Below the pieces are notes generated by a model, which saw only the letters and a list, made by a program, of their open reading frames with translations, did not search any database and was not told the origin of the DNA. From a virus: DNA of 10,798 bases. This document shows, one piece after another, positions 1-10,649 of this stretch. Made by a program: the position numbers and the translations under genes. The DNA is taken from the UHGV virus genome UHGV-1759085; one strand, given 5' to 3'. How positions within the stretch are numbered: the first letter of the stretch is position 1; each line of letters opens with the position of its first letter.

Positions 1-807
1 CTGAGTATTCATTCTTGCAAGTGTGTTATTAACAGACGACACCAAAAGCTCATAATAACCATCACCAACTGGTGATTTAGATAATTGAGAAATTGATGTT
101 GCTCCACGTCCACAATGTACAACTACAGCTCCCCTTCCGCTTAAACGATACCATTCATTGGCAAACTCCCCCCAGGCATGCCCTGAGGATGCAACTCCCG
201 ATGAACTAACCATATTCTGAATTATTGGCTTTATAGTTCCATCCCTGAAATCGTACATTAACGATTTTGGAAGAGGGTCAGGAAAGCCAGATGTATCACC
301 TGATAAAATAGCCTCGCCTACACTATTTGACTGCCCATACGTAACAAATATATCGTATACATCTGGTGACTCAAGATATTCTGTCGCAATAACATTACTT
401 GCTATTTTTGATGCTGTTACTCCAGATATTATTGCTGAACTATTATTTTCTGATAGCCTTCTTTCTAATTGATCTGGATCATACTTCAATACATTTGGAA
501 AATAGAACTGCTGCGAACCATACGCATCATAAACAGCCATAGAATGTCCTTGCACGGTAACGAACTTGGCAATCTGTCCGTTATATACCGGATATCCAGC
601 AGCGTTAATGGTGATTGGTTGAGAAACAGGAACGTGAGAACCGTCCTCGCTCTCCATATAAACCTGAATCTGGTTTTCAGGATTTACAGGATCAGTGTCA
701 ATCTGACCGATATAAATTTTACCATTGGCATTGGCTTTAAATGAACGAGATAAAGTAAATAATTGACTTGGTTGCGATACAACGATATTTGGCGTGATAT
801 CTGGCAT
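1..807 (-). CDS. Tailspike protein, 5' portion only (about 269 codons); P22-type N-terminal head-binding domain followed by a non-P22 domain carrying an SGNH/sialate-O-acetylesterase-like GQSN motif; C-terminus lies beyond the window start
   Basis: Not in the ORF track because it is open at the window edge. Manual minus-strand translation from the ATG at 807..805 (SD-like CAGGAG a few nt upstream) is stop-free to coordinate 1 and begins [50 protein letters not shown]..., which closely matches my recollection of the P22 gp9 head-binding domain. GQSNSVG is encoded at 316..336. Confidence 0.85.
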
Positions 808-978: not shown

Positions 979-2976
979 CTATTCTGACAACGCATCAGAC
1001 TTAGCCCCCTGCGTCATAGCGTTAATAGCCTTTTGTGCCTGCTGCATGGCTTTCTCAAAAGATGTTGATCCGCGTGGGGTGTTTGCCATTCTGAGCATTG
1101 CATTTCTGAATGGTTCGCCCTCATAGGCGCGAGTAAGAAGTCCGTAGCTTACTGCTGCGCCAGTTGTCGCCGGGTTCATTGCCGTCCCATACCCAATAAT
1201 GAACGGGATAGTTTGCTGCCCTGTGGGTGTTGTTACTGCCGCTTTTGCAGCCTGCTGCGTGGATTGCAGGTAGTTTTTTAATCCTTTCAGATAAGCAGCG
1301 TCCTGCCCCTTAAATGTGATGCCAGTCTGGTTTTGCAGGATGTTAAGCTGACGAAGGAACTGGTCAGGGGATCCGCCAGATTTCTCTATCGCCTTTCCAA
1401 TGATGCCATTGCGCATTTGCGCTCTTCCAACGCGACCAACTGAGTTATACAGCGTCTTAATTTCCGATTTGTTCTTGCTGAATAGCATGTTATTCACAAC
1501 TTCCGGCGTCAGGTCTCCTTTCATGAGAACATTCTTCAGCCTGGTATTCTTTAGTTTCGCCGCTTCGTCAGCGTAGACGGCATTGGCCTGCTGATATTTA
1601 CGGAGAGTATCATTGCCAAGATTCTGACCAATGGCACCATTGATATCGTCGGTCATCGCCTTGTAAACGCGCTGTATGGCGGCATCGGAACGGTTTGGTA
1701 ACACTGGTCGCTCACCCTTCACGTCCATTCTGAACTGGCTGCGCAGATCGCTTAACTGCTTCAAATCCAGATTGACCGGACCATCAGGGCCAGCATTGCG
1801 AACAAGCTCATCACGATATGACTGAAGTTTTGAAATTGTCTCGTTATCAGCTACCTTACCAAGCTTCTGCAGATTAGATATTTCTGTATCAATCTGCTGA
1901 ATTGCTCGTGCAGGCTGAATGTTTACTCCTGCCATAGCATTCTGAACCTGCTCCAGTCGATTACCTGCAGCACGACGAATTCCTGATGTTTTCGCTTTAA
2001 GGCTGTCAATAACAACAGCTGGATCATACTCACCGAATTTATCAGCAAATCTCTGCACCAACTGGCTTCTCGCTTCCTGTTGCGTTGCTCTCATTCCGCT
2101 TGTGCCAGCCAGAGGGATATTTTCTGCTGTAGTCTGCGCCATTTTTCCGACGCGGGAAGTGGGTTGTAACAGGTCTGTGGTGTGCAGAGGTACTCCTTCA
2201 CGCTCTGCAAATCTGATAGCCTGCTGCGCTTCTGGCGCGATAGCACCACGAACGCCACGATAAGCAGCTCCTAATCCACGTCCGGCAGCGTTAATAGCAC
2301 CGCCAGTAAGTACACCAACGCCTAAATCGGTGGCGAGTGCTTCCGCATCATCTTTCGCACTATTTGCTGCAAGTGATCCAACTGCGTTTTCAGCGAGAAG
2401 GCGGGTTGCACCCTGAGCAATTCGACCAGCAAGTGTTGGTGCCTGTGTTGCCGCTCTCTCAACGCCAGCAGGAGTGAGGTAAGGCAATGCTTCAGCAAAT
2501 ACCCTGCCCTCTGTCGTTTGTGGAGTCAGCGCACCTTGCTGAAGGCCAAAGTCCTGCTCTAATCCCTGCGTTGTTACTCGTGGTGCTGGTTGATATGTTC
2601 CATCGCCAATACCGAGTTTACCGCCAGCCCATGCCGCCGCGCTTGTTACAGCATCGGCAACTGATGCAGGTATGTTTGCCACGTTCACGCCAGCCTGCAC
2701 CAGTCCGCGACCAGTCTCTTTTACTGCTTCGCCAAGATCAGACATAAATCCACTTTGCTGTGGTTGTTGCTGTGCTACTGGTTGCTGTGTCTCCACTGGC
2801 CGCACTGATGGCAATGGATAGGCAGCATAGAAAGCTTGCTTAGCCTGCTCTGCATTTTCTCCGGCTTGCGGGGCCACGACTTCATTGAAGTATTGCTCCT
2901 GAGCTTGCGCTTTTTGTTCTGGTGCTAACGCCTGATACTGTGGAGAGGCGATAACATCTTTCCATGCTTTAGCCAT
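979..2976 (-). CDS. Ejection (internal virion / DNA-injection) protein, P22 gp16-like by position
   Basis: 665-aa ORF, last of three consecutive ejection-protein-sized genes before the tailspike, as in the P22 gene order 7-20-16-9; start codon shares a base with the upstream stop (TAATG at 2974..2978); Q-rich low-complexity N-terminal region. Confidence 0.75.
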   Translation of the reverse strand: MAKAWKDVIASPQYQALAPEQKAQAQEQYFNEVVAPQAGENAEQAKQAFYAAYPLPSVRPVETQQPVAQQQPQQSGFMSDLGEAVKETGRGLVQAGVNVANIPASVADAVTSAAAWAGGKLGIGDGTYQPAPRVTTQGLEQDFGLQQGALTPQTTEGRVFAEALPYLTPAGVERAATQAPTLAGRIAQGATRLLAENAVGSLAANSAKDDAEALATDLGVGVLTGGAINAAGRGLGAAYRGVRGAIAPEAQQAIRFAEREGVPLHTTDLLQPTSRVGKMAQTTAENIPLAGTSGMRATQQEARSQLVQRFADKFGEYDPAVVIDSLKAKTSGIRRAAGNRLEQVQNAMAGVNIQPARAIQQIDTEISNLQKLGKVADNETISKLQSYRDELVRNAGPDGPVNLDLKQLSDLRSQFRMDVKGERPVLPNRSDAAIQRVYKAMTDDINGAIGQNLGNDTLRKYQQANAVYADEAAKLKNTRLKNVLMKGDLTPEVVNNMLFSKNKSEIKTLYNSVGRVGRAQMRNGIIGKAIEKSGGSPDQFLRQLNILQNQTGITFKGQDAAYLKGLKNYLQSTQQAAKAAVTTPTGQQTIPFIIGYGTAMNPATTGAAVSYGLLTRAYEGEPFRNAMLRMANTPRGSTSFEKAMQQAQKAINAMTQGAKSDALSE

Positions 2977-4280: not shown

Positions 4281-4973
4281 TTAAAACAACGAGCCAAGCA
4301 GGCCAAGTCCGCCGCCAATTGCCGCACCTAATCCAGTGCCAAGTCCGGGAACAATAGAGCCAAGAGCAGCGCCAGTCATAGCTCCTGAAGCTCCGCCACT
4401 AATTGCTGTCTGAAGGCCTGATGGTTTATTGGCATTAGCAGCGGCAAGTGCTGCGCTTTGCTGTGCAATGCTGCTCATGTTGTTGGCGTACGTCTGCCCG
4501 GCGTTTGCCTGACCTTGCAGAGCACCAAGCCCAACGTTTGCCAGATTGTTGTAATTGCTCATCTGGTTTGATAACCAAGACTGACCGAGAGTCGGCGCGA
4601 TCGTAGCCAGTTGATTGCTTGTAGCTGTCGAACCAAGTCCTCCCGTAGCCTCCGCAGCAGCAAGACTCTGGTAACGAGCCTGACCTGCAAGGTCTTTATA
4701 CTGCTGAGAGTTGTAATACTGATTAAGTGCCTGACCCTGTCCTTCTAAACTGGAAAGGTTCTGAAGCTGGTTAACATACTGCTCCGCAAGCGGCGTGAAC
4801 GGAGCAAGGTTTTTCATGATCGTCTGCCACTGCTGATTTTGCAGGTCTGCGGCATACTTCTGGGCTTCTGCTGCATACTTTGCGCTTTTATCTGAGCCAC
4901 CTTTCCCGCCTTTTTCAGGGCAATAAGGTTCCTCGCCGCGCAGTTTTCTGCCCAGCTTAAATGCATATAACAT
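4281..4973 (-). CDS. Ejection protein, P22 gp7-like by position, with a glycine-rich hydrophobic C-terminal tail
   Basis: 230-aa ORF (P22 gp7 is of similar size, from memory); GGGAG SD inside the upstream gene; C-terminus ...GLGTGLGAAIGGGLGLLGSLF. Confidence 0.75.
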   Translation of the reverse strand: MLYAFKLGRKLRGEEPYCPEKGGKGGSDKSAKYAAEAQKYAADLQNQQWQTIMKNLAPFTPLAEQYVNQLQNLSSLEGQGQALNQYYNSQQYKDLAGQARYQSLAAAEATGGLGSTATSNQLATIAPTLGQSWLSNQMSNYNNLANVGLGALQGQANAGQTYANNMSSIAQQSAALAAANANKPSGLQTAISGGASGAMTGAALGSIVPGLGTGLGAAIGGGLGLLGSLF

Positions 4974-4975
4974 GG

Positions 4976-5431
4976 CTATCTCCCGTGATTCAGGAAATCG
5001 ATTAGTTCTTCGCGTGTTGCGCTGTAAAAAGTCACGTCATCCACGCCTTTGAAGTATTTCTTGATGGTTCCTACACGCTTAAGGCCAATCATTGCGCAGT
5101 ACATCTGCCCGTGGCGGAATTTGCGTGCAGCGAACGATGTGACGCACTGAACGGTGGTGTTAGTCAGAATGTATCGCCAGAACGCCAGCCCGATTTCCTT
5201 GCTGAAGCCGCGAATCTCTGGCAGGTACATGGCGTGGCAATCGAATGTCAGCGGCTGAATCTCCTGATAGTAAACAATGCCGCCGAACTGCCCGTGCACG
5301 TTAACCTCAAAGTAATGGCATTCAGGCTTGTAGTCGTATCCATCGCCGTTGTTGCTCCCGGCAATAATGTCAGGGTGATTTCCGACTGCTTCGATCAGGT
5401 CGATGTTTCGCGTTGGTTTGAACTGAATCAT
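4976..5431 (-). CDS. P22 gp14-like virion-associated protein (position-equivalent gene between tail needle and ejection proteins)
   Basis: 151-aa ORF whose ATG shares a base with the tail needle stop (TAATG at 5429..5433); matches the position of gene 14 in the P22 late operon. Confidence 0.65.
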   Translation of the reverse strand: MIQFKPTRNIDLIEAVGNHPDIIAGSNNGDGYDYKPECHYFEVNVHGQFGGIVYYQEIQPLTFDCHAMYLPEIRGFSKEIGLAFWRYILTNTTVQCVTSFAARKFRHGQMYCAMIGLKRVGTIKKYFKGVDDVTFYSATREELIDFLNHGR

Positions 5432-6384
5432 TACTGCTCCGCGATTATCTTGATGGTTGTGGCAGTAAACGCCGCACCATTCGACTGAATGGTTAACGTA
5501 CTGCCATTTGTGGCAAGAAAGCCGTCTTTATCCACGCTGAAGAACGTAGCTAACAGGATGTTGTCGGTTGTTGTCACCGCATTACGACTGCTGACCAACG
5601 TGTCAGGAACAGAGCCGGAAAAGGTTAGCTGCATTGACCTGTTGGCGGTTCCGCTGGGCCACGTCCCGACGATCGACAGCTTGAAGAACAAGGTTTTGTT
5701 CTCGTTGAACACAACCATCTTGTTGTTAACGGTGTCGAAGAATGGTGCCAACGAGCCTGATGACGGCGTGAGCGTTTTCAGCAGGCTAACAAGGTTGGTC
5801 GGCGCTGTCGGGATGGTTACAGATACGCCAGAGTAAACAACCTCTGATTTCTTGCGCGTGGTGGCATACTCAAGTGCAGATATTCTTGTTGAGTGATCAC
5901 CAGCTGTGCTTTGTAGCGTCGAAATACTTCCCTCTGCCGCTGTGAGCCTGGTATCAAGTGCGTCGATATCGTTTGTATTCTGAGTTATGCGCGCATCATG
6001 GTTTGCTAACTCAGATTCATTGGCAGCAATTCGCGTCTCGTGATCAGCCAGCTCTGTTTCAGCAGCCGTAATCCTTTTTTCATGATCTGCAAGAGTGCTT
6101 TCCGCTGCTGCAATTCTATGTTCATGATTGATGAGAGTTGCTTCAGCAGCTTCAATTCTGGATTCATGGTCTGCAAGGGTGACATCCTGCTCATCGTTCC
6201 TGACCTGTGCATCATAAGCGCCCTGTCCGGCCTCGTTGGCTTTGTTAGCCACGTTACCAACATCAGTGCCCTGTGCGATAACGTAAAGCAGATACGACTG
6301 CGAGAAGATATTGCGTGGAAGGACTGATGTGTCGAGCCGTGTAGCCTGAATGATTACCGGCACATTGAGATTCGAATCCGCCAT
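5431..6384 (-). CDS. Tail needle (P22 gp26-like) with conserved N-terminal plug domain, repeat-built coiled-coil and a C-terminal beta-rich knob-like domain
   Basis: 317-aa ORF; N-terminus [68 protein letters not shown] matches my recollection of P22 gp26; followed by 14-residue LADHExRIxAAExx-type repeats and about 140 C-terminal residues without heptad character. Confidence 0.9.
5953..6204 (-). repeat. Tandem array of about six degenerate 42-bp units inside the tail needle gene, encoding 14-residue coiled-coil repeats
   Basis: Plus-strand units anchored by ttcatgatctgcaag-like motifs at 5995, 6037, 6079, 6121 and 6163, spaced exactly 42 bp apart; each encodes L-A-D/N-H-E/D-x-R-I on the minus strand. 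Confidence 0.7.
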
Positions 6385-7802
6385 TACTCAATCCTTATCT
6401 GGCAGCCAGACAGAGTGACAGGTGACTTAGTGATAACGCGCAATTTGAAGCCGACATTTTTCCTTATTCGCCCGACACGCTTCCACAAAACGCGTTTGTC
6501 GTAAACGAACGGTTCATTCTGCTCAATCATCTGCTCACGCCCGTAATTGATGCCGTCAGTGGTTGCAGAGAGAAAAAGGCGGTCAGCATACTGCGCAACT
6601 CCAGTTGACGATTCAACTTCAAGGTCGAAAACTCTGGCGTTATCCGCTTTGAACAGAGGAGTAAACAGCAGATGTTCCTGTTGCTTGTCGTACTGGCTGC
6701 TGATGTCGAATTGCAATTTCCCGGTCACGGACTCCAGTTTATCGCCGCACGTTATCTGATTGCCTTCGTAAATGAAGTCGATAGCGCGGTACACATCGTC
6801 ATACAGTCCTGTTTTCAGCACACACCATTGCGGACCATTAGCGCTTGAAGATGCGTCGTACACGAGAACATGGCGCGGAAGGTGGATAATCAGCAACTCA
6901 TGCGCATCAAATCGCAGAGACTCCATCACGCCATCAGCCAGTTCATCAGCAGTGTAGGAGCGTAGTATTTTCTCAATGCTCGCGCTGGCGATTGGTGATA
7001 CCTGACCGGAGCCGATGATGTACACAGACGGCGCACCTGTTGCCGGATTGCTGATGAACGCATATGAATCAGAGAATGGCGTTTTGCAGTAAGTCCCGGC
7101 AATGCCTTTCTGCACCATCAGCGATGGCTGGGCGACATACAAAGCAGCACCAACTGTGGTTGCACCAGTCAGGGAGAAATATTCAATCGTCGATGAACCA
7201 AAACAGACGATGAAATCTCGCCATGTACCTATGCCGATGATGCCGTCCGGCTGAGACTCGGCACGATATTGTGCACTGTAGCGGTCAGGATGCGATTCGT
7301 CTTCAAGGTCAGTGATAAACCATGAATCAGTGCCGTCTTTTGACCACGCATAACGCCCACGTAAGCGTGTGATGTCACGGACTGAGCCTAACTCATACTG
7401 CGTGAATCCGCTGTCTGTAGGCCAGTTTGAGACAGTTTTAACCGTGCCATCATAGCGATACTCGACCAGTTGACCATTAACGCCTACAGCCTGAGATGTT
7501 CGACCATGCGCCATTGATACGCGACCACTTCCGGCGACGTCACCGACTTCGCTTTCGCCTTTGTAGAGCTTCCCACCACACACGCGATAAACAGCACTCT
7601 GCGCCATGTTGTACTCGACGCCGCGCGATATACCGTTCACATTAGAACGTTTGGCAATGCCCGGGAATGAGCGAAGATATCCGCTGCTGTTGAGGATTTC
7701 TTTGGGTGTAGCCAGCATATTCACTGGCAGATAGTCGATATAGTCGGCGTTTCGAAAGTCTTTGCCGACACCTTTCATAAGCGGAAGTTGCTGAATCGGC
7801 AT
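6384..7802 (-). CDS. Tail hub / head-completion protein, P22 gp10-like
   Basis: 472-aa ORF (same size as P22 gp10, from memory) immediately after the gp4-like gene; GAGGTG SD overlaps the upstream stop; start shares a base with the needle gene at 6384. Confidence 0.8.
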
Positions 7803-7811
7803 TTATTCACC

Positions 7812-8273
7812 TCACGTACTCGGATCATCTTTCTCGATGTAAAACCGATTCCACGTAAACGCGCTTTTGTTACCACTACCGCGAGGCATGTCATTTCGCC
7901 GCTCAAGTGGTGGTATTTTGGTTAAAGCGATACAGATTGTCTGATATGCACTGTCAGCAGCGGTAAGGAGAGCGTCTGACGGCTGAATGACGTTATCCAT
8001 GCACACTTGCACAGCGAGTTTCAAAGCGACGCCATCATTTGCCCATGCAGGGATACCTGAATCATCGTCAGGTAACGGCATGATGCCGTTTTCTGTATCA
8101 GCAAACTGATATCCAAGCTCGATACCTTTAGCCTGCCATGCTGCCATCATGTCTTCGAGGTCATTAATGGCATCTTCAATTGCCTGAGGGTCAGCATCTG
8201 TCAACGTGGCATTGGAATACAGCCCGGCTTTTCGTAAAGCCTTAAGAACGAGATCACCCTTCGTTTTCGCCAT
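7812..8273 (-). CDS. Head-completion / tail accessory protein, P22 gp4-like
   Basis: 153-aa ORF; N-terminus MAKTKGDLVLKALRKAGLYSNATLTDADPQAIEDAINDLEDMMAAW resembles my recollection of the P22 gp4 N-terminus; sits between the coat region and the gp10-like gene. Confidence 0.85.
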   Translation of the reverse strand: MAKTKGDLVLKALRKAGLYSNATLTDADPQAIEDAINDLEDMMAAWQAKGIELGYQFADTENGIMPLPDDDSGIPAWANDGVALKLAVQVCMDNVIQPSDALLTAADSAYQTICIALTKIPPLERRNDMPRGSGNKSAFTWNRFYIEKDDPST

Positions 8274-8442
8274 CTTCTTCCGCCTTAGCCACTTTATGCT
8301 TCGTTGCGGTTTCTTCAGGAGTTTTTACCCAGCCTTTTTTCAGGTGAGATTTAACTTCTTCGTCATCAACAATGATGTAATCGACAGCAAACTGACCACA
8401 GGTGATCATGTTGCCAGGCTTATAGAGCATTGTTCGTGCCAT
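8254..8442 (-). CDS. Small hypothetical protein (62 aa) between coat and gp4-like gene; acidic C-terminus; function unknown
   Basis: ATG at 8442..8440 preceded by GGGAGAAG SD; 3' end overlaps the gp4-like start by 20 nt in another frame. The track's longer 75-aa version, starting at 8481, would begin inside the terminator hairpin with no SD, so the internal ATG is preferred. Confidence 0.5.
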   Translation of the reverse strand: MARTMLYKPGNMITCGQFAVDYIIVDDEEVKSHLKKGWVKTPEETATKHKVAKAEEDGENEG

Positions 8443-8452
8443 TGTCTTCTCC

Positions 8453-8477
8453 CAATAAAAATGGGGCCGAAGCCCCA
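8453..8477 (-). terminator. Candidate intrinsic (rho-independent) terminator or attenuator just downstream of the coat gene
   Basis: Minus-strand reading GGGGC-UUCG-GCCCC (plus 8463..8476) followed directly by AUUUUUAUU, starting 7 nt after the coat stop codon. The stem is only 5 bp but all G-C, with a UUCG tetraloop. Confidence 0.5.
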
Positions 8478-8483
8478 CCAAAA

Positions 8484-9755: not shown

Positions 9756-10649
9756 TTATTTTTTTGCCTTTTTAGCGGCGAAATACGGCGTCCAGTCACC
9801 AGTTTCCAGCGCCTTGGCTTTCAGTTTGTCGAGGTTGTTGATTACTGCGCCGTTGCTCCCCTTAACTGTCGGGGTTGTGGCTGCCGTGGTTTTTGCTTTT
9901 GGCATGATTCTGGCCTTCGATTCGATACGTTCCAGCAGACGACCAATTGCTACGTGGTTGGTAGCTTCTGCCAGTTGCTTGCGCAGTTCAGCGTTGCGAC
10001 CGAGTGCCAGAACAACGATTTCCGGCTTCTCTGACTCAAACAAGATCGCGTTTTGTGTCTCGATGGGGATTTCCTCGAGTACGGCCTGCTCAGCTTCCTG
10101 ATAGCCAGGAACTTTGAGAGCCTTAACACGTTGCTGATATTTGGATAATCGCTCTTGATAGGCAGCCTGAAGCTCCTGCTCCTTCTGCTTGCGAGCCATC
10201 TCCTGTTGCTGGTACTTGCCGTTATCCTCTGCCCACTTAGCCATGCGTTGCTGGTAGATTTCTTCATCGAAACCGATGTCCTCATCATCCAGTTTTGGCA
10301 TTCGCGGTGGTTGAGTGATTACCGGCTGCTGCTCGACGGGTTTCTGATACTGACGCATCAGCTCTTTCAGCTCACGGTCTTTCTCTTTAATCGTCTTGCG
10401 CAGGTGTTTTACCAGTCCATGCTCTGCGCCATCTTCGCTGGTTGGCGAATCCAGCTTTTCGTCACCAAAGTAGAATTCCTGTTCTGATTCGTCGTCATCA
10501 GTTTCAGTAGCTTCCTCTGCATCATTGCCGGAGGACTCACTGCCATCTTCTGTTTCGACTTCTTCAGCCAGTTCGACATCATCAGGAATCTGCTCTGACG
10601 CGTCGGTTTCGATTTCAACTTCTGGTGTGTTTTCTGCCATCTGGTCCAT
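9756..10649 (-). CDS. Scaffolding protein, P22 gp8-like
   Basis: 297-aa ORF with an extremely acidic N-terminal 75 residues, a central charged helical region (KEKDRELKELMRQYQ...) and a basic C-terminus (...KLKAKALETGDWTPYFAAKKAKK) resembling the coat-binding helix-turn-helix end of P22 scaffolding protein; AGGGG SD upstream. Confidence 0.8.
   Translation of the reverse strand: MDQMAENTPEVEIETDASEQIPDDVELAEEVETEDGSESSGNDAEEATETDDDESEQEFYFGDEKLDSPTSEDGAEHGLVKHLRKTIKEKDRELKELMRQYQKPVEQQPVITQPPRMPKLDDEDIGFDEEIYQQRMAKWAEDNGKYQQQEMARKQKEQELQAAYQERLSKYQQRVKALKVPGYQEAEQAVLEEIPIETQNAILFESEKPEIVVLALGRNAELRKQLAEATNHVAIGRLLERIESKARIMPKAKTTAATTPTVKGSNGAVINNLDKLKAKALETGDWTPYFAAKKAKK

Follow-up and report, generated by a model that had tools for sequence, protein, structure and literature searches.

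An HS1-type tail needle gene encoding a shaft of 14-residue units that vary in number among relatives

Results

Genes and features at the locus

The window, by which we mean the whole stretch of viral DNA that was analysed (UHGV virus genome UHGV-1759085, 10,798 nt), carries its long open reading frames on the minus strand only, in the layout of a P22/Sf6-like late operon. The subject of this study is a minus-strand open reading frame of 317 aa, listed at 5431..6384, which directly follows the tail hub gene gp10 and precedes the ejection-protein genes, a position that defines the gp26 family of tail needles. In the direction of coding, the genes of the window are:

Minus strand, 297 aa: protein in the scaffold position, with no Pfam match; its counterpart in related phages is annotated 'capsid and scaffold'
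Minus strand, first gene after the 297-aa protein: coat (PF11651)
Minus strand, between coat and gp4: open reading frame of 75 aa
Minus strand, just before gp10: gp4 (PF11650)
6384..7802, minus strand: tail hub gp10 (PF11134, E=7.5e-300), upstream neighbour, whose channel the needle is predicted to plug
5431..6384, minus strand: tail needle gene, orthologue of P22 gene 26 and Sf6 gene 9, of HS1 type (open reading frame list, identity with HS1, Pfam and PDB matches)
4976..5431, minus strand: DUF2824 protein (PF11039, E=4.3e-53), downstream neighbour
Minus strand, after DUF2824: gp7 (PF25688)
Minus strand, after gp7: gp20 (PF16928)
Minus strand, after gp20: protein of 665 aa in the gp16 position
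Minus strand, running off the left end of the window: tailspike, first 269 codons only

At both borders of the needle gene the junction sequence TAATG gives a 1-nt overlap, between the gp10 stop and the needle start and between the needle stop and the DUF2824 start. The loci of relatives keep the gene order gp4, gp10, needle, DUF2824, gp7, gp20, and Escherichia phage vB_EcoP-720R6, Sf6, Gally, Sf101, CUS-3 and others align to 56-80% of the window DNA at 93-96% identity. In the tailspike, a head-binding domain of P22 type precedes a segment that matches SASA carbohydrate esterases weakly and below threshold, and this segment is rare among closed E. coli genomes.

No promoter-like site was found in 4900..6900, and no terminator-like site was found on the coding strand around the needle gene; three terminator-like sites were detected, all on the non-coding plus strand and at the level seen in shuffles. 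The window gave no Rfam match to a structured RNA. Plus-strand open reading frames overlap the region of the needle gene (5489..5836, 6040..6327 and 5111..5488), and the minus-strand gene at 5431..6384 is the one backed by family, structure and synteny.

Identity with the HS1 needle and the terminal domains

The needle gene is 97.4% identical at the nucleotide level to the chromosome of E. coli HS, and its protein differs from the HS1 needle at 8 of 317 residues (97.5% amino acid identity). Read from the window to HS1, the substitutions are D100E, K103T, A107D, N138A, A161V, S211T, A269S and V270A, of which the last two adjoin the tip triad S266-R267-N268. Judged by its sequence, the gene is an allele of the already characterised HS1-type needle of a P22-like E. 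coli phage.

The HS1 needle has 317 aa and a shaft of 16 heptads, compared with 11 in Sf6 and P22; the 1.1 Å structure of its knob (4K6B) shows a homotrimer of TNF-like jellyroll fold in which three L-glutamates are bound, along with a phosphate at the tip (Leavitt et al. 2013, PMC3741392). Across P22-like phages the needles measure 220-320 Å and comprise 11-16 heptads, and the needle tip affects the kinetics of DNA delivery without setting host specificity (PMC3741392). In the needle trimer, the N-terminal hairpin closes off the hexameric tail hub, so that the DNA is retained (PMC9728967; for the plug role of this domain see also PMC3741392). On the window, the corresponding parts of the gene are:

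6205..6384, minus strand: residues 1-60, gp26-type N-terminal virion-binding or plug domain (alignments to P22 gp26)
5860..6204, minus strand: residues 61-175, shaft, a continuous heptad-repeat helix (register, AF2 model, alignment to the P22 gp26 coiled coil)
5434..5859, minus strand: residues 176-317, knob of Sf6/HS1 type, a TNF-like jellyroll (PF16532, PDB, Foldseek)
5433..5431, minus strand: stop codon, after 317 codons

In a PDB search, residues 3-64 aligned to 8EAP_B, a gp26 N-terminal fragment from a tail structure (E=2.3e-27), and residues 1-150 aligned to P22 gp26 (2POH and 3C9I, E~1e-42 to 1e-44). Across 32 relatives, about 40 of the first 67 residues do not vary, and the conserved N-terminal plug domain of ~60 residues that marks the gp26 family is present. 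The AF2 monomer model is poor in the N-terminal 40 residues, with pLDDT<50 in the plug domain, which is not surprising in a part of the chain that packs against the trimer.

At the other end, residues 136-317 match PF16532, the 'Sf6-type phage tail needle knob' that characterises the Sf6/HS1 subtype, with E=3.5e-105 and 349.6 bits (cut-off, 27 bits). Residues 165-317 are ~98% identical to the knobs of HS1 (4K6B) and Sf6 gp9 (3RWN), which were retrieved by the PDB search with E=3.6e-89 and E=2.8e-88, respectively. The AF2 monomer places beta strands between residues 179 and 316, and Foldseek ranked the same two structures best (TM 0.84-0.85), followed by the TNF-type folds of PRD1 P5, BclA, EDA-A1 and C1q. 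All of the L-glutamate ligands listed for HS1 (E181, K235, S283, D285, L290 and K312; PMC3741392) are present at the HS1 positions, as is the tip triad, and the near-identical homologues of the knob are trimeric in crystal structures. Knob-bearing needles occur well beyond Escherichia and Shigella.

A tip of P22 type was considered and rejected. The phmmer alignments to P22 gp26 chains end within the shaft, C-terminal stretches score below zero, and no homology was found between the C-terminal ~90 residues and residues 141-233 of P22 gp26. The initial annotation of this DNA had described a gp26-like N-terminal domain and last ~140 residues that are beta-rich, non-heptad and suggestive of a knob instead of the P22 tip; both descriptions agree with what was found, namely the alignment of residues 1-64 to P22 gp26 chains and a knob of 142 residues.

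The shaft and its 14-residue units

No break interrupts the heptad a/d register between about residue 56 and L171, and the AF2 monomer (32 relatives) is a single helix over residues 42-175, with pLDDT 96-98 over residues 70-160. A long continuous heptad helix after the N-terminal domain is a further mark of the gp26 family; the segment aligns to the crystallised coiled coil of P22 gp26, and by homology the shaft would be a trimeric coiled coil. It contains the polar layer NxxQD (N63, Q66 and D67), and N63, E65, Q66 and D67 are invariant in the 32 relatives; in P22 gp26, NxxQD is a Ca2+ site (PMC13580157). Taken together, the protein shows all the defining features that could be assessed, both those of the gp26 family and those of the Sf6/HS1 knob subtype. 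The repeated part of the shaft and what follows it are arranged thus:

5968..6177, minus strand: five tandem 14-residue units, residues 70-139, 42 nt each
6177..6136, minus strand: unit 1, residues 70-83
6135..6094, minus strand: unit 2, residues 84-97
6093..6052, minus strand: unit 3, residues 98-111
6051..6010, minus strand: unit 4, residues 112-125
6009..5968, minus strand: unit 5, residues 126-139
5905..5967, minus strand: three heptads lacking the DH-x-x-RI motif, residues 140-160
5863..5904, minus strand: terminal DH-x-x-RI unit, residues 161-174, joining the shaft to the knob

The units follow the consensus L-A-[DN]-H-[ED]-x-R-I-x-A-A-E-x-x, with L or I at heptad position a and H and A at position d, so that the d positions of the shaft hold His 73, 87, 101, 115, 129 and 164, and Ala or Asn136. 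Each unit contains R-I-x-x-A-E, which we take to fit the R-h-x-x-h-E trimerisation pattern; a literature search on 'trimerization octad' found nothing. Residues 140-160 are similar to the LDxRVTxxExxI repeats found in P22 gp26 and in the stalks of trimeric autotransporters, and this segment matches several times over in giant adhesin-like proteins.

Five to six near-perfect units, encoded by 42-bp DNA repeats at 5953..6204, had been proposed for this shaft. The five units quoted are exact, and the array is present, at 6177..5968, which the proposed range overshoots by 27 nt upstream and 15 nt downstream. The sixth unit exists as the terminal DH-x-x-RI unit, offset from the five-unit array by three heptads. 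'Near-perfect' does not describe the units well: compared pairwise, they are identical at 5-10 of 14 residues (36-71%) and at 16-30 of 42 nucleotides (38-71%), and the longest exact word common to any two is 9 nt. TRF reported only 6058..6181 (period 42, 3.0 copies, 69% matches, score 102), and a generic repeat finder did not report the five-unit array.

It could be argued that the 14-residue period is a mere by-product of coiled-coil constraints, and that length differences between needles come from the mosaic replacement of shaft modules. The low DNA identity between units and the array's escape from the generic repeat finder fit the first half of this explanation, as does the sharing of codons for identical residues, which is at chance in units 4 and 5. 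However, over residues 70-174 there are 41 identities in 91 comparisons at lag 14 (13 at lag 7), compared with 8.9 +/- 2.8 in free shuffles and 24.7 +/- 3.5 in shuffles that keep the composition of each heptad position, with 0 of 5000 reaching 41 in either case. When the order of heptads was shuffled, the value was 24.7 +/- 4.6 and 2 of 5000 shuffles reached the observed one. This excess indicates that the 14-residue period exceeds a generic heptad signal. Moreover, codon sharing among units 1-3, and only there, is above chance at about twice the expected level (18 of 27, 9.8 expected). The combination of low DNA identity with this pattern of codon sharing suggests that the repeat is kept mainly at the protein level, with the mark of a less ancient DNA duplication in units 1-3 only.

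Shaft length among relatives

Relatives were taken to be the 120 closest cluster representatives in a collection of 5.8 billion proteins. Their lengths include 268, 282, 289, 296, 303, 310, 317, 331, 338 and 345 aa, and 107 of the 112 full-length relatives have a length that leaves a remainder of two on division by seven. The junctions of the variants were read by comparing shafts as 14-mers and from the DNA of seven alleles.

Shorter forms have arisen in several ways. The 303-aa length occurs as one type in which units 1 and 2 are fused at a common AGAATTG of 7 nt, a second in which units 4 and 5 are fused at CGCGAAT|AACT (2-4 nt), and a third in which units 2 and 3 are fused, as read at the protein level (P0039). 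One type of 289 aa has lost units 1-2 between CTTGCAGA[C/T]CATGAA repeats, and in another units 1 and 3 are fused (P0050, protein level). The 268-aa variant (L006) carries a junction at TGATCAC between unit 4 and the terminal unit, with 147 bp, or seven heptads, deleted. In the longer 345- and 331-aa alleles, units 1-2 are present twice through an 84-bp duplication, whose copies are 100% identical in one allele and differ by 1 nt in the other; the two events were independent, since the lineages differ in the duplicated units (A/E and N/H). A 28-residue unit occurs in one, two or three copies in a sister lineage (P0068, P0051 and P0052), and a separate lineage has a 14-residue duplication (P0062).

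Some length variants could be artefacts of short-read assembly or gene calling, with the true copy number constant. Among the lengths found, P0008 (324 aa) results from a wrongly called start and P0057 (394 aa) from a fusion of gp4 to the needle; the out-of-phase lengths of 285, 298 and 316 come mostly from short Logan/ENA contigs; and the 345-aa allele was seen on one contig only. Of all the variants, the 331- and 345-aa alleles (GCA_011944205.1, GCA_026334955.1), with their 84-bp duplications, are the ones that assembly error could affect most. Nevertheless, units that have no common word longer than 9 nt are too divergent to collapse in assembly, and the 303-aa alleles lie on many independent contigs (P0010 is indexed in 31 collection blocks, of which 24 contigs were read), with one of them annotated as a 912-nt CDS in the closed 5.29-Mb chromosome of strain CFSAN061770. 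The 331-aa form P0009 was found on 5 contigs. The divergence of the units, together with the allele in a closed chromosome, leads us to take the length variation as real and to consider an artefactual origin very unlikely.

The other half of the explanation raised above, mosaic replacement of shaft modules, is in keeping with the clear mosaicism of the needle, seen in O157:H7 remnants that match the knob only and in other genomes that match only the first ~68 codons, and with the 282-aa shaft of Sf6 type, which is a different sequence and no simple deletion derivative. In contrast, at seven variant loci identity to the window is 91-100% for the first 69 needle codons, for the knob-coding part and for the end of gp10, and variants with such flanks differ by exact in-register fusions or by the 84-bp duplications. 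The DUF2824 gene is of a different type (57-59% identical) in 3 of the 7 loci. Considering both its halves, we regard the explanation by coiled-coil constraint and mosaic exchange as improbable.

A third possibility is that the repeats form a programmed, contingency-type hypervariable locus that switches needle length frequently for host adaptation. Independent events do recur at the same units, including the two duplications of units 1-2, there are several fusion junctions, and all events are in frame. Against this, the locus holds no perfect repeats, and the near-identical tandem DNA repeats that could support frequent slippage were not found in it. Among the closest relatives, the 317-aa form makes up by far the largest cluster (P0006, 1430 members), and its five-unit layout is kept at ~75% identity in relatives from Klebsiella aerogenes and Serratia marcescens; this conservation across genera suggests that copy number is mostly stable. 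In 5426 closed E. coli genomes, exact-match probes for the duplication junction and for the fusion junction 303b found no match and the probe for the fusion junction 303a found one genome, so that the variants are either rare in that collection or carry SNPs that break the 28-nt seed. No recombinase, DGR or invertase signal was found adjoining the needle gene. A programmed hypervariable locus was rejected on the degeneracy of the repeats (38-71% DNA identity between units; 69% over 3 copies by TRF), and we rate it as extremely unlikely. The low identity of the units and common words of at most 9 nt imply instead that the rate of length change must be low.

The initial annotation had named the DNA repeats as a plausible site for recombinational change in shaft length. 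Close relatives of 268, 289, 303, 331 and 345 aa, with junctions inside the units, support that proposal, and the comparison of related prophages rules out an identical repeat number in all of them. Copy number does vary; the degeneracy of the repeats argues against homologous exchange between near-identical 42-bp copies as its source. The best reading of the length change is slipped-strand or illegitimate recombination that happens now and then at microhomologies lying in register, with the need to preserve heptad phase acting as a filter.

Discussion

In summary, we consider it very probable that the product of this gene is a tail needle of three modules, belonging to a temperate E. coli podophage of the P22-like (Sf6/HS1-like) kind, and that units of the needle shaft are gained and lost at microhomologies. 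By homology the needle would be a parallel homotrimer. Residues 1-60 are predicted to fold back as a helical hairpin, closing the hexameric channel of gp10 so that the packaged DNA stays inside the head; residues ~61-175 would form a thin trimeric coiled-coil shaft of ~16 heptads projecting beyond the tailspikes; and residues 176-317 would form a TNF-like jellyroll knob binding three L-glutamates. During infection the needle would be the first part of the virion at the outer membrane, and its release would open the channel for the ejection proteins gp7, gp20 and gp16, encoded just downstream, with the needle tip probably influencing the rate of DNA delivery. We infer the trimeric state and the plug and trigger function from solved homologues and the literature.

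The recurrence of the same motif codons every 42 nt places short microhomologies (2-9 nt) in register. Slipped-strand or illegitimate recombination between them could delete or duplicate whole units, amounting to 14, 28 or 49 residues, and selection for an unbroken heptad phase would then keep almost only multiples of seven. Each unit gained or lost is expected to change the length of the needle by roughly 2 nm. We infer both this mutational mechanism and any functional effect of length.

More tentatively, the DH-x-x-RI units might be an evolvable module of length and stability, the gain and loss of which is adaptive and tuned to the thickness of the O-antigen or capsule or to the type of tailspike. 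Each unit would contribute ~2 nm to the shaft together with a buried His layer and an R-h-x-x-h-E trimerisation motif, and the 3 to 7 units of close relatives (268-345 aa overall) could set how far beyond the tailspikes the knob reaches and how easily the needle is released. We consider this adaptive reading possible but doubtful.

The protein itself is already known, and its shaft length of 16 heptads and its knob have been described previously, such that the needle gene of the window is one more allele of an ordinary, known protein. We did not find a DNA-level account of recurrent in-register gain and loss of units in the accessible literature; the DNA-level record of a recurrent, heptad-quantised polymorphism in shaft length presented here is a small extension, not a discovery. 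The first reading of this gene, made from sequence only, was right, and its prediction of copy-number variation was borne out. Looking forward, the natural in-register variants (268, 289, 303, 317, 331 and 345 aa) provide a ready allelic series that can be used to ask how needle length affects adsorption, the kinetics of DNA ejection and fibre stability, and the catalogue of variants could guide the engineering of gp26-type fibres with defined length.

Among known systems, trimeric autotransporter adhesins and giant fibre-like proteins carry a two-heptad trimeric coiled-coil repeat of the same kind, also with polar layers in the core, and shaft residues ~70-172 match 6-10 times in proteins of 1000-2185 aa with 14-residue LDxRVTxxExxI repeats. 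These proteins have neither plug nor knob, and their biology differs, as they are bacterial adhesins; the likeness of the shaft to adhesin stalks extends no further than the repeat motif and could be convergent. The gp26 protein of Salmonella phage P22 (2POH, 3C9I) is homologous to the window needle in its N-terminal domain and the first part of its coiled coil, including the NxxQD layer and two DH-x-x-RI units, but it has 233 aa and ends in a triple beta-helix and inverted coiled coil, without a knob. Sf6 gp9 of a Shigella phage (knob, 3RWN) agrees with the window needle in plug, knob (~98% over residues 165-317) and operon position, and tblastn gave 79.5% identity over 96% of the query. It differs in length (282 aa and 11 heptads, compared with 317 aa here) and in a divergent shaft sequence with only two N-terminal DH-x-x-RI units and the terminal one. 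The HS1 needle (E. coli HS, EcHS_A0316) has, as here, 317 aa, a five-unit shaft (16 heptads by the count in PMC3741392), and the same knob, L-glutamate and phosphate ligands and gene neighbours, and between it and the needle of the window there is no architectural difference.

Matches to the needle shaft in giant proteins, and truncated needle derivatives

The shaft of the tail needle (residues ~70-172) found matches beyond phage needles, with 6-10 matches each within giant proteins of 1000-2185 aa, including the cluster representatives P0153, P0177, P0230 and P0222, among others. P0153 and P0177 are fibre-like proteins; P0230 and P0222 carry 14-residue stalk repeats of the LDGRVTTNEGGITS type and look like trimeric autotransporter adhesins. 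It follows from these repeated matches that needle shaft and bacterial adhesin stalks either have a two-heptad repeat with polar core layers in common or have converged on it.

Parts of the needle also occur as derivatives in other genomes. In P0057, a 394-aa cluster representative from Shigella sonnei, an N-terminal portion of gp4 continues in frame into the needle from residue ~56 onward; this fusion implies that the tail hub gene gp10 and the needle plug domain were deleted in a decaying prophage. Many chromosomes of E. coli O157:H7 and its relatives match only the knob-coding part of the gene (window 5433..5878, 94% identity). A small P22-like remnant with a needle gene homologue has been mentioned (PMC3741392), and the knob-only matches are consistent with it.

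Other genes of the late operon

The following features accompany the needle gene in the window:

1..807, minus strand: first 269 codons of the tailspike gene, which continues past the left end of the window
979..2976, minus strand: 665-aa protein at the gp16 position
4846..4887, minus strand: 21-bp tandem repeat in the gp7 gene (2.0 copies, 86% matches)
8254..8481, minus strand: short ORF separating the coat gene from gp4, with a 75-aa product when read from its TTG start
9756..10649, minus strand: 297-aa protein at the scaffold position

The tailspike begins with a head-binding domain of the P22 type, which takes up residues 1-113 (PF09008, E=1.4e-65). Further on, residues 151-263 gave a weak match to the SASA carbohydrate acetylesterases (PF03629, E=0.0014) that at 18.7 bits lies below the cut-off of 24.8 bits, hinting at a tailspike of an O-antigen-deacetylating type instead of a glycosidase. 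Similarity to related phages ends at window position ~466, a mosaic junction inside the tailspike gene, and among 5426 closed E. coli genomes just two have a match to window 98..747 (87-88%).

The 21-bp tandem repeat encodes a duplicated 7-residue stretch (AKYAAEAQKYAAD) close to the N-terminus of gp7, an ejection protein. The gp16-position and scaffold-position proteins had no match in the Pfam copy searched; precomputed annotations place PF26808 (Phage_P22_gp16) on homologues of the former, whose size differs among relatives (602-713 aa). A Pfam search with the 75-aa ORF likewise returned no match, and a 62-aa gene is called at its position in three related prophages (L001, L002 and L007). 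The ORF probably represents a small, conserved late gene of unassigned function.

Distribution and tip of knob-bearing needles

A 2013 report described knob-bearing needles as restricted to Escherichia/Shigella. Full-length knob-bearing needles were found in genomes of Klebsiella aerogenes and Serratia marcescens (317 aa, 75-77% identity), as well as in phages of Klebsiella, Salmonella, Aeromonas and Shewanella, and their distribution is thus now broader than that earlier picture. Within the knob, the window needle has A269-V270 (codons 269-270, window 5575..5580) at positions where the HS1 and Sf6 needles both have S-A.
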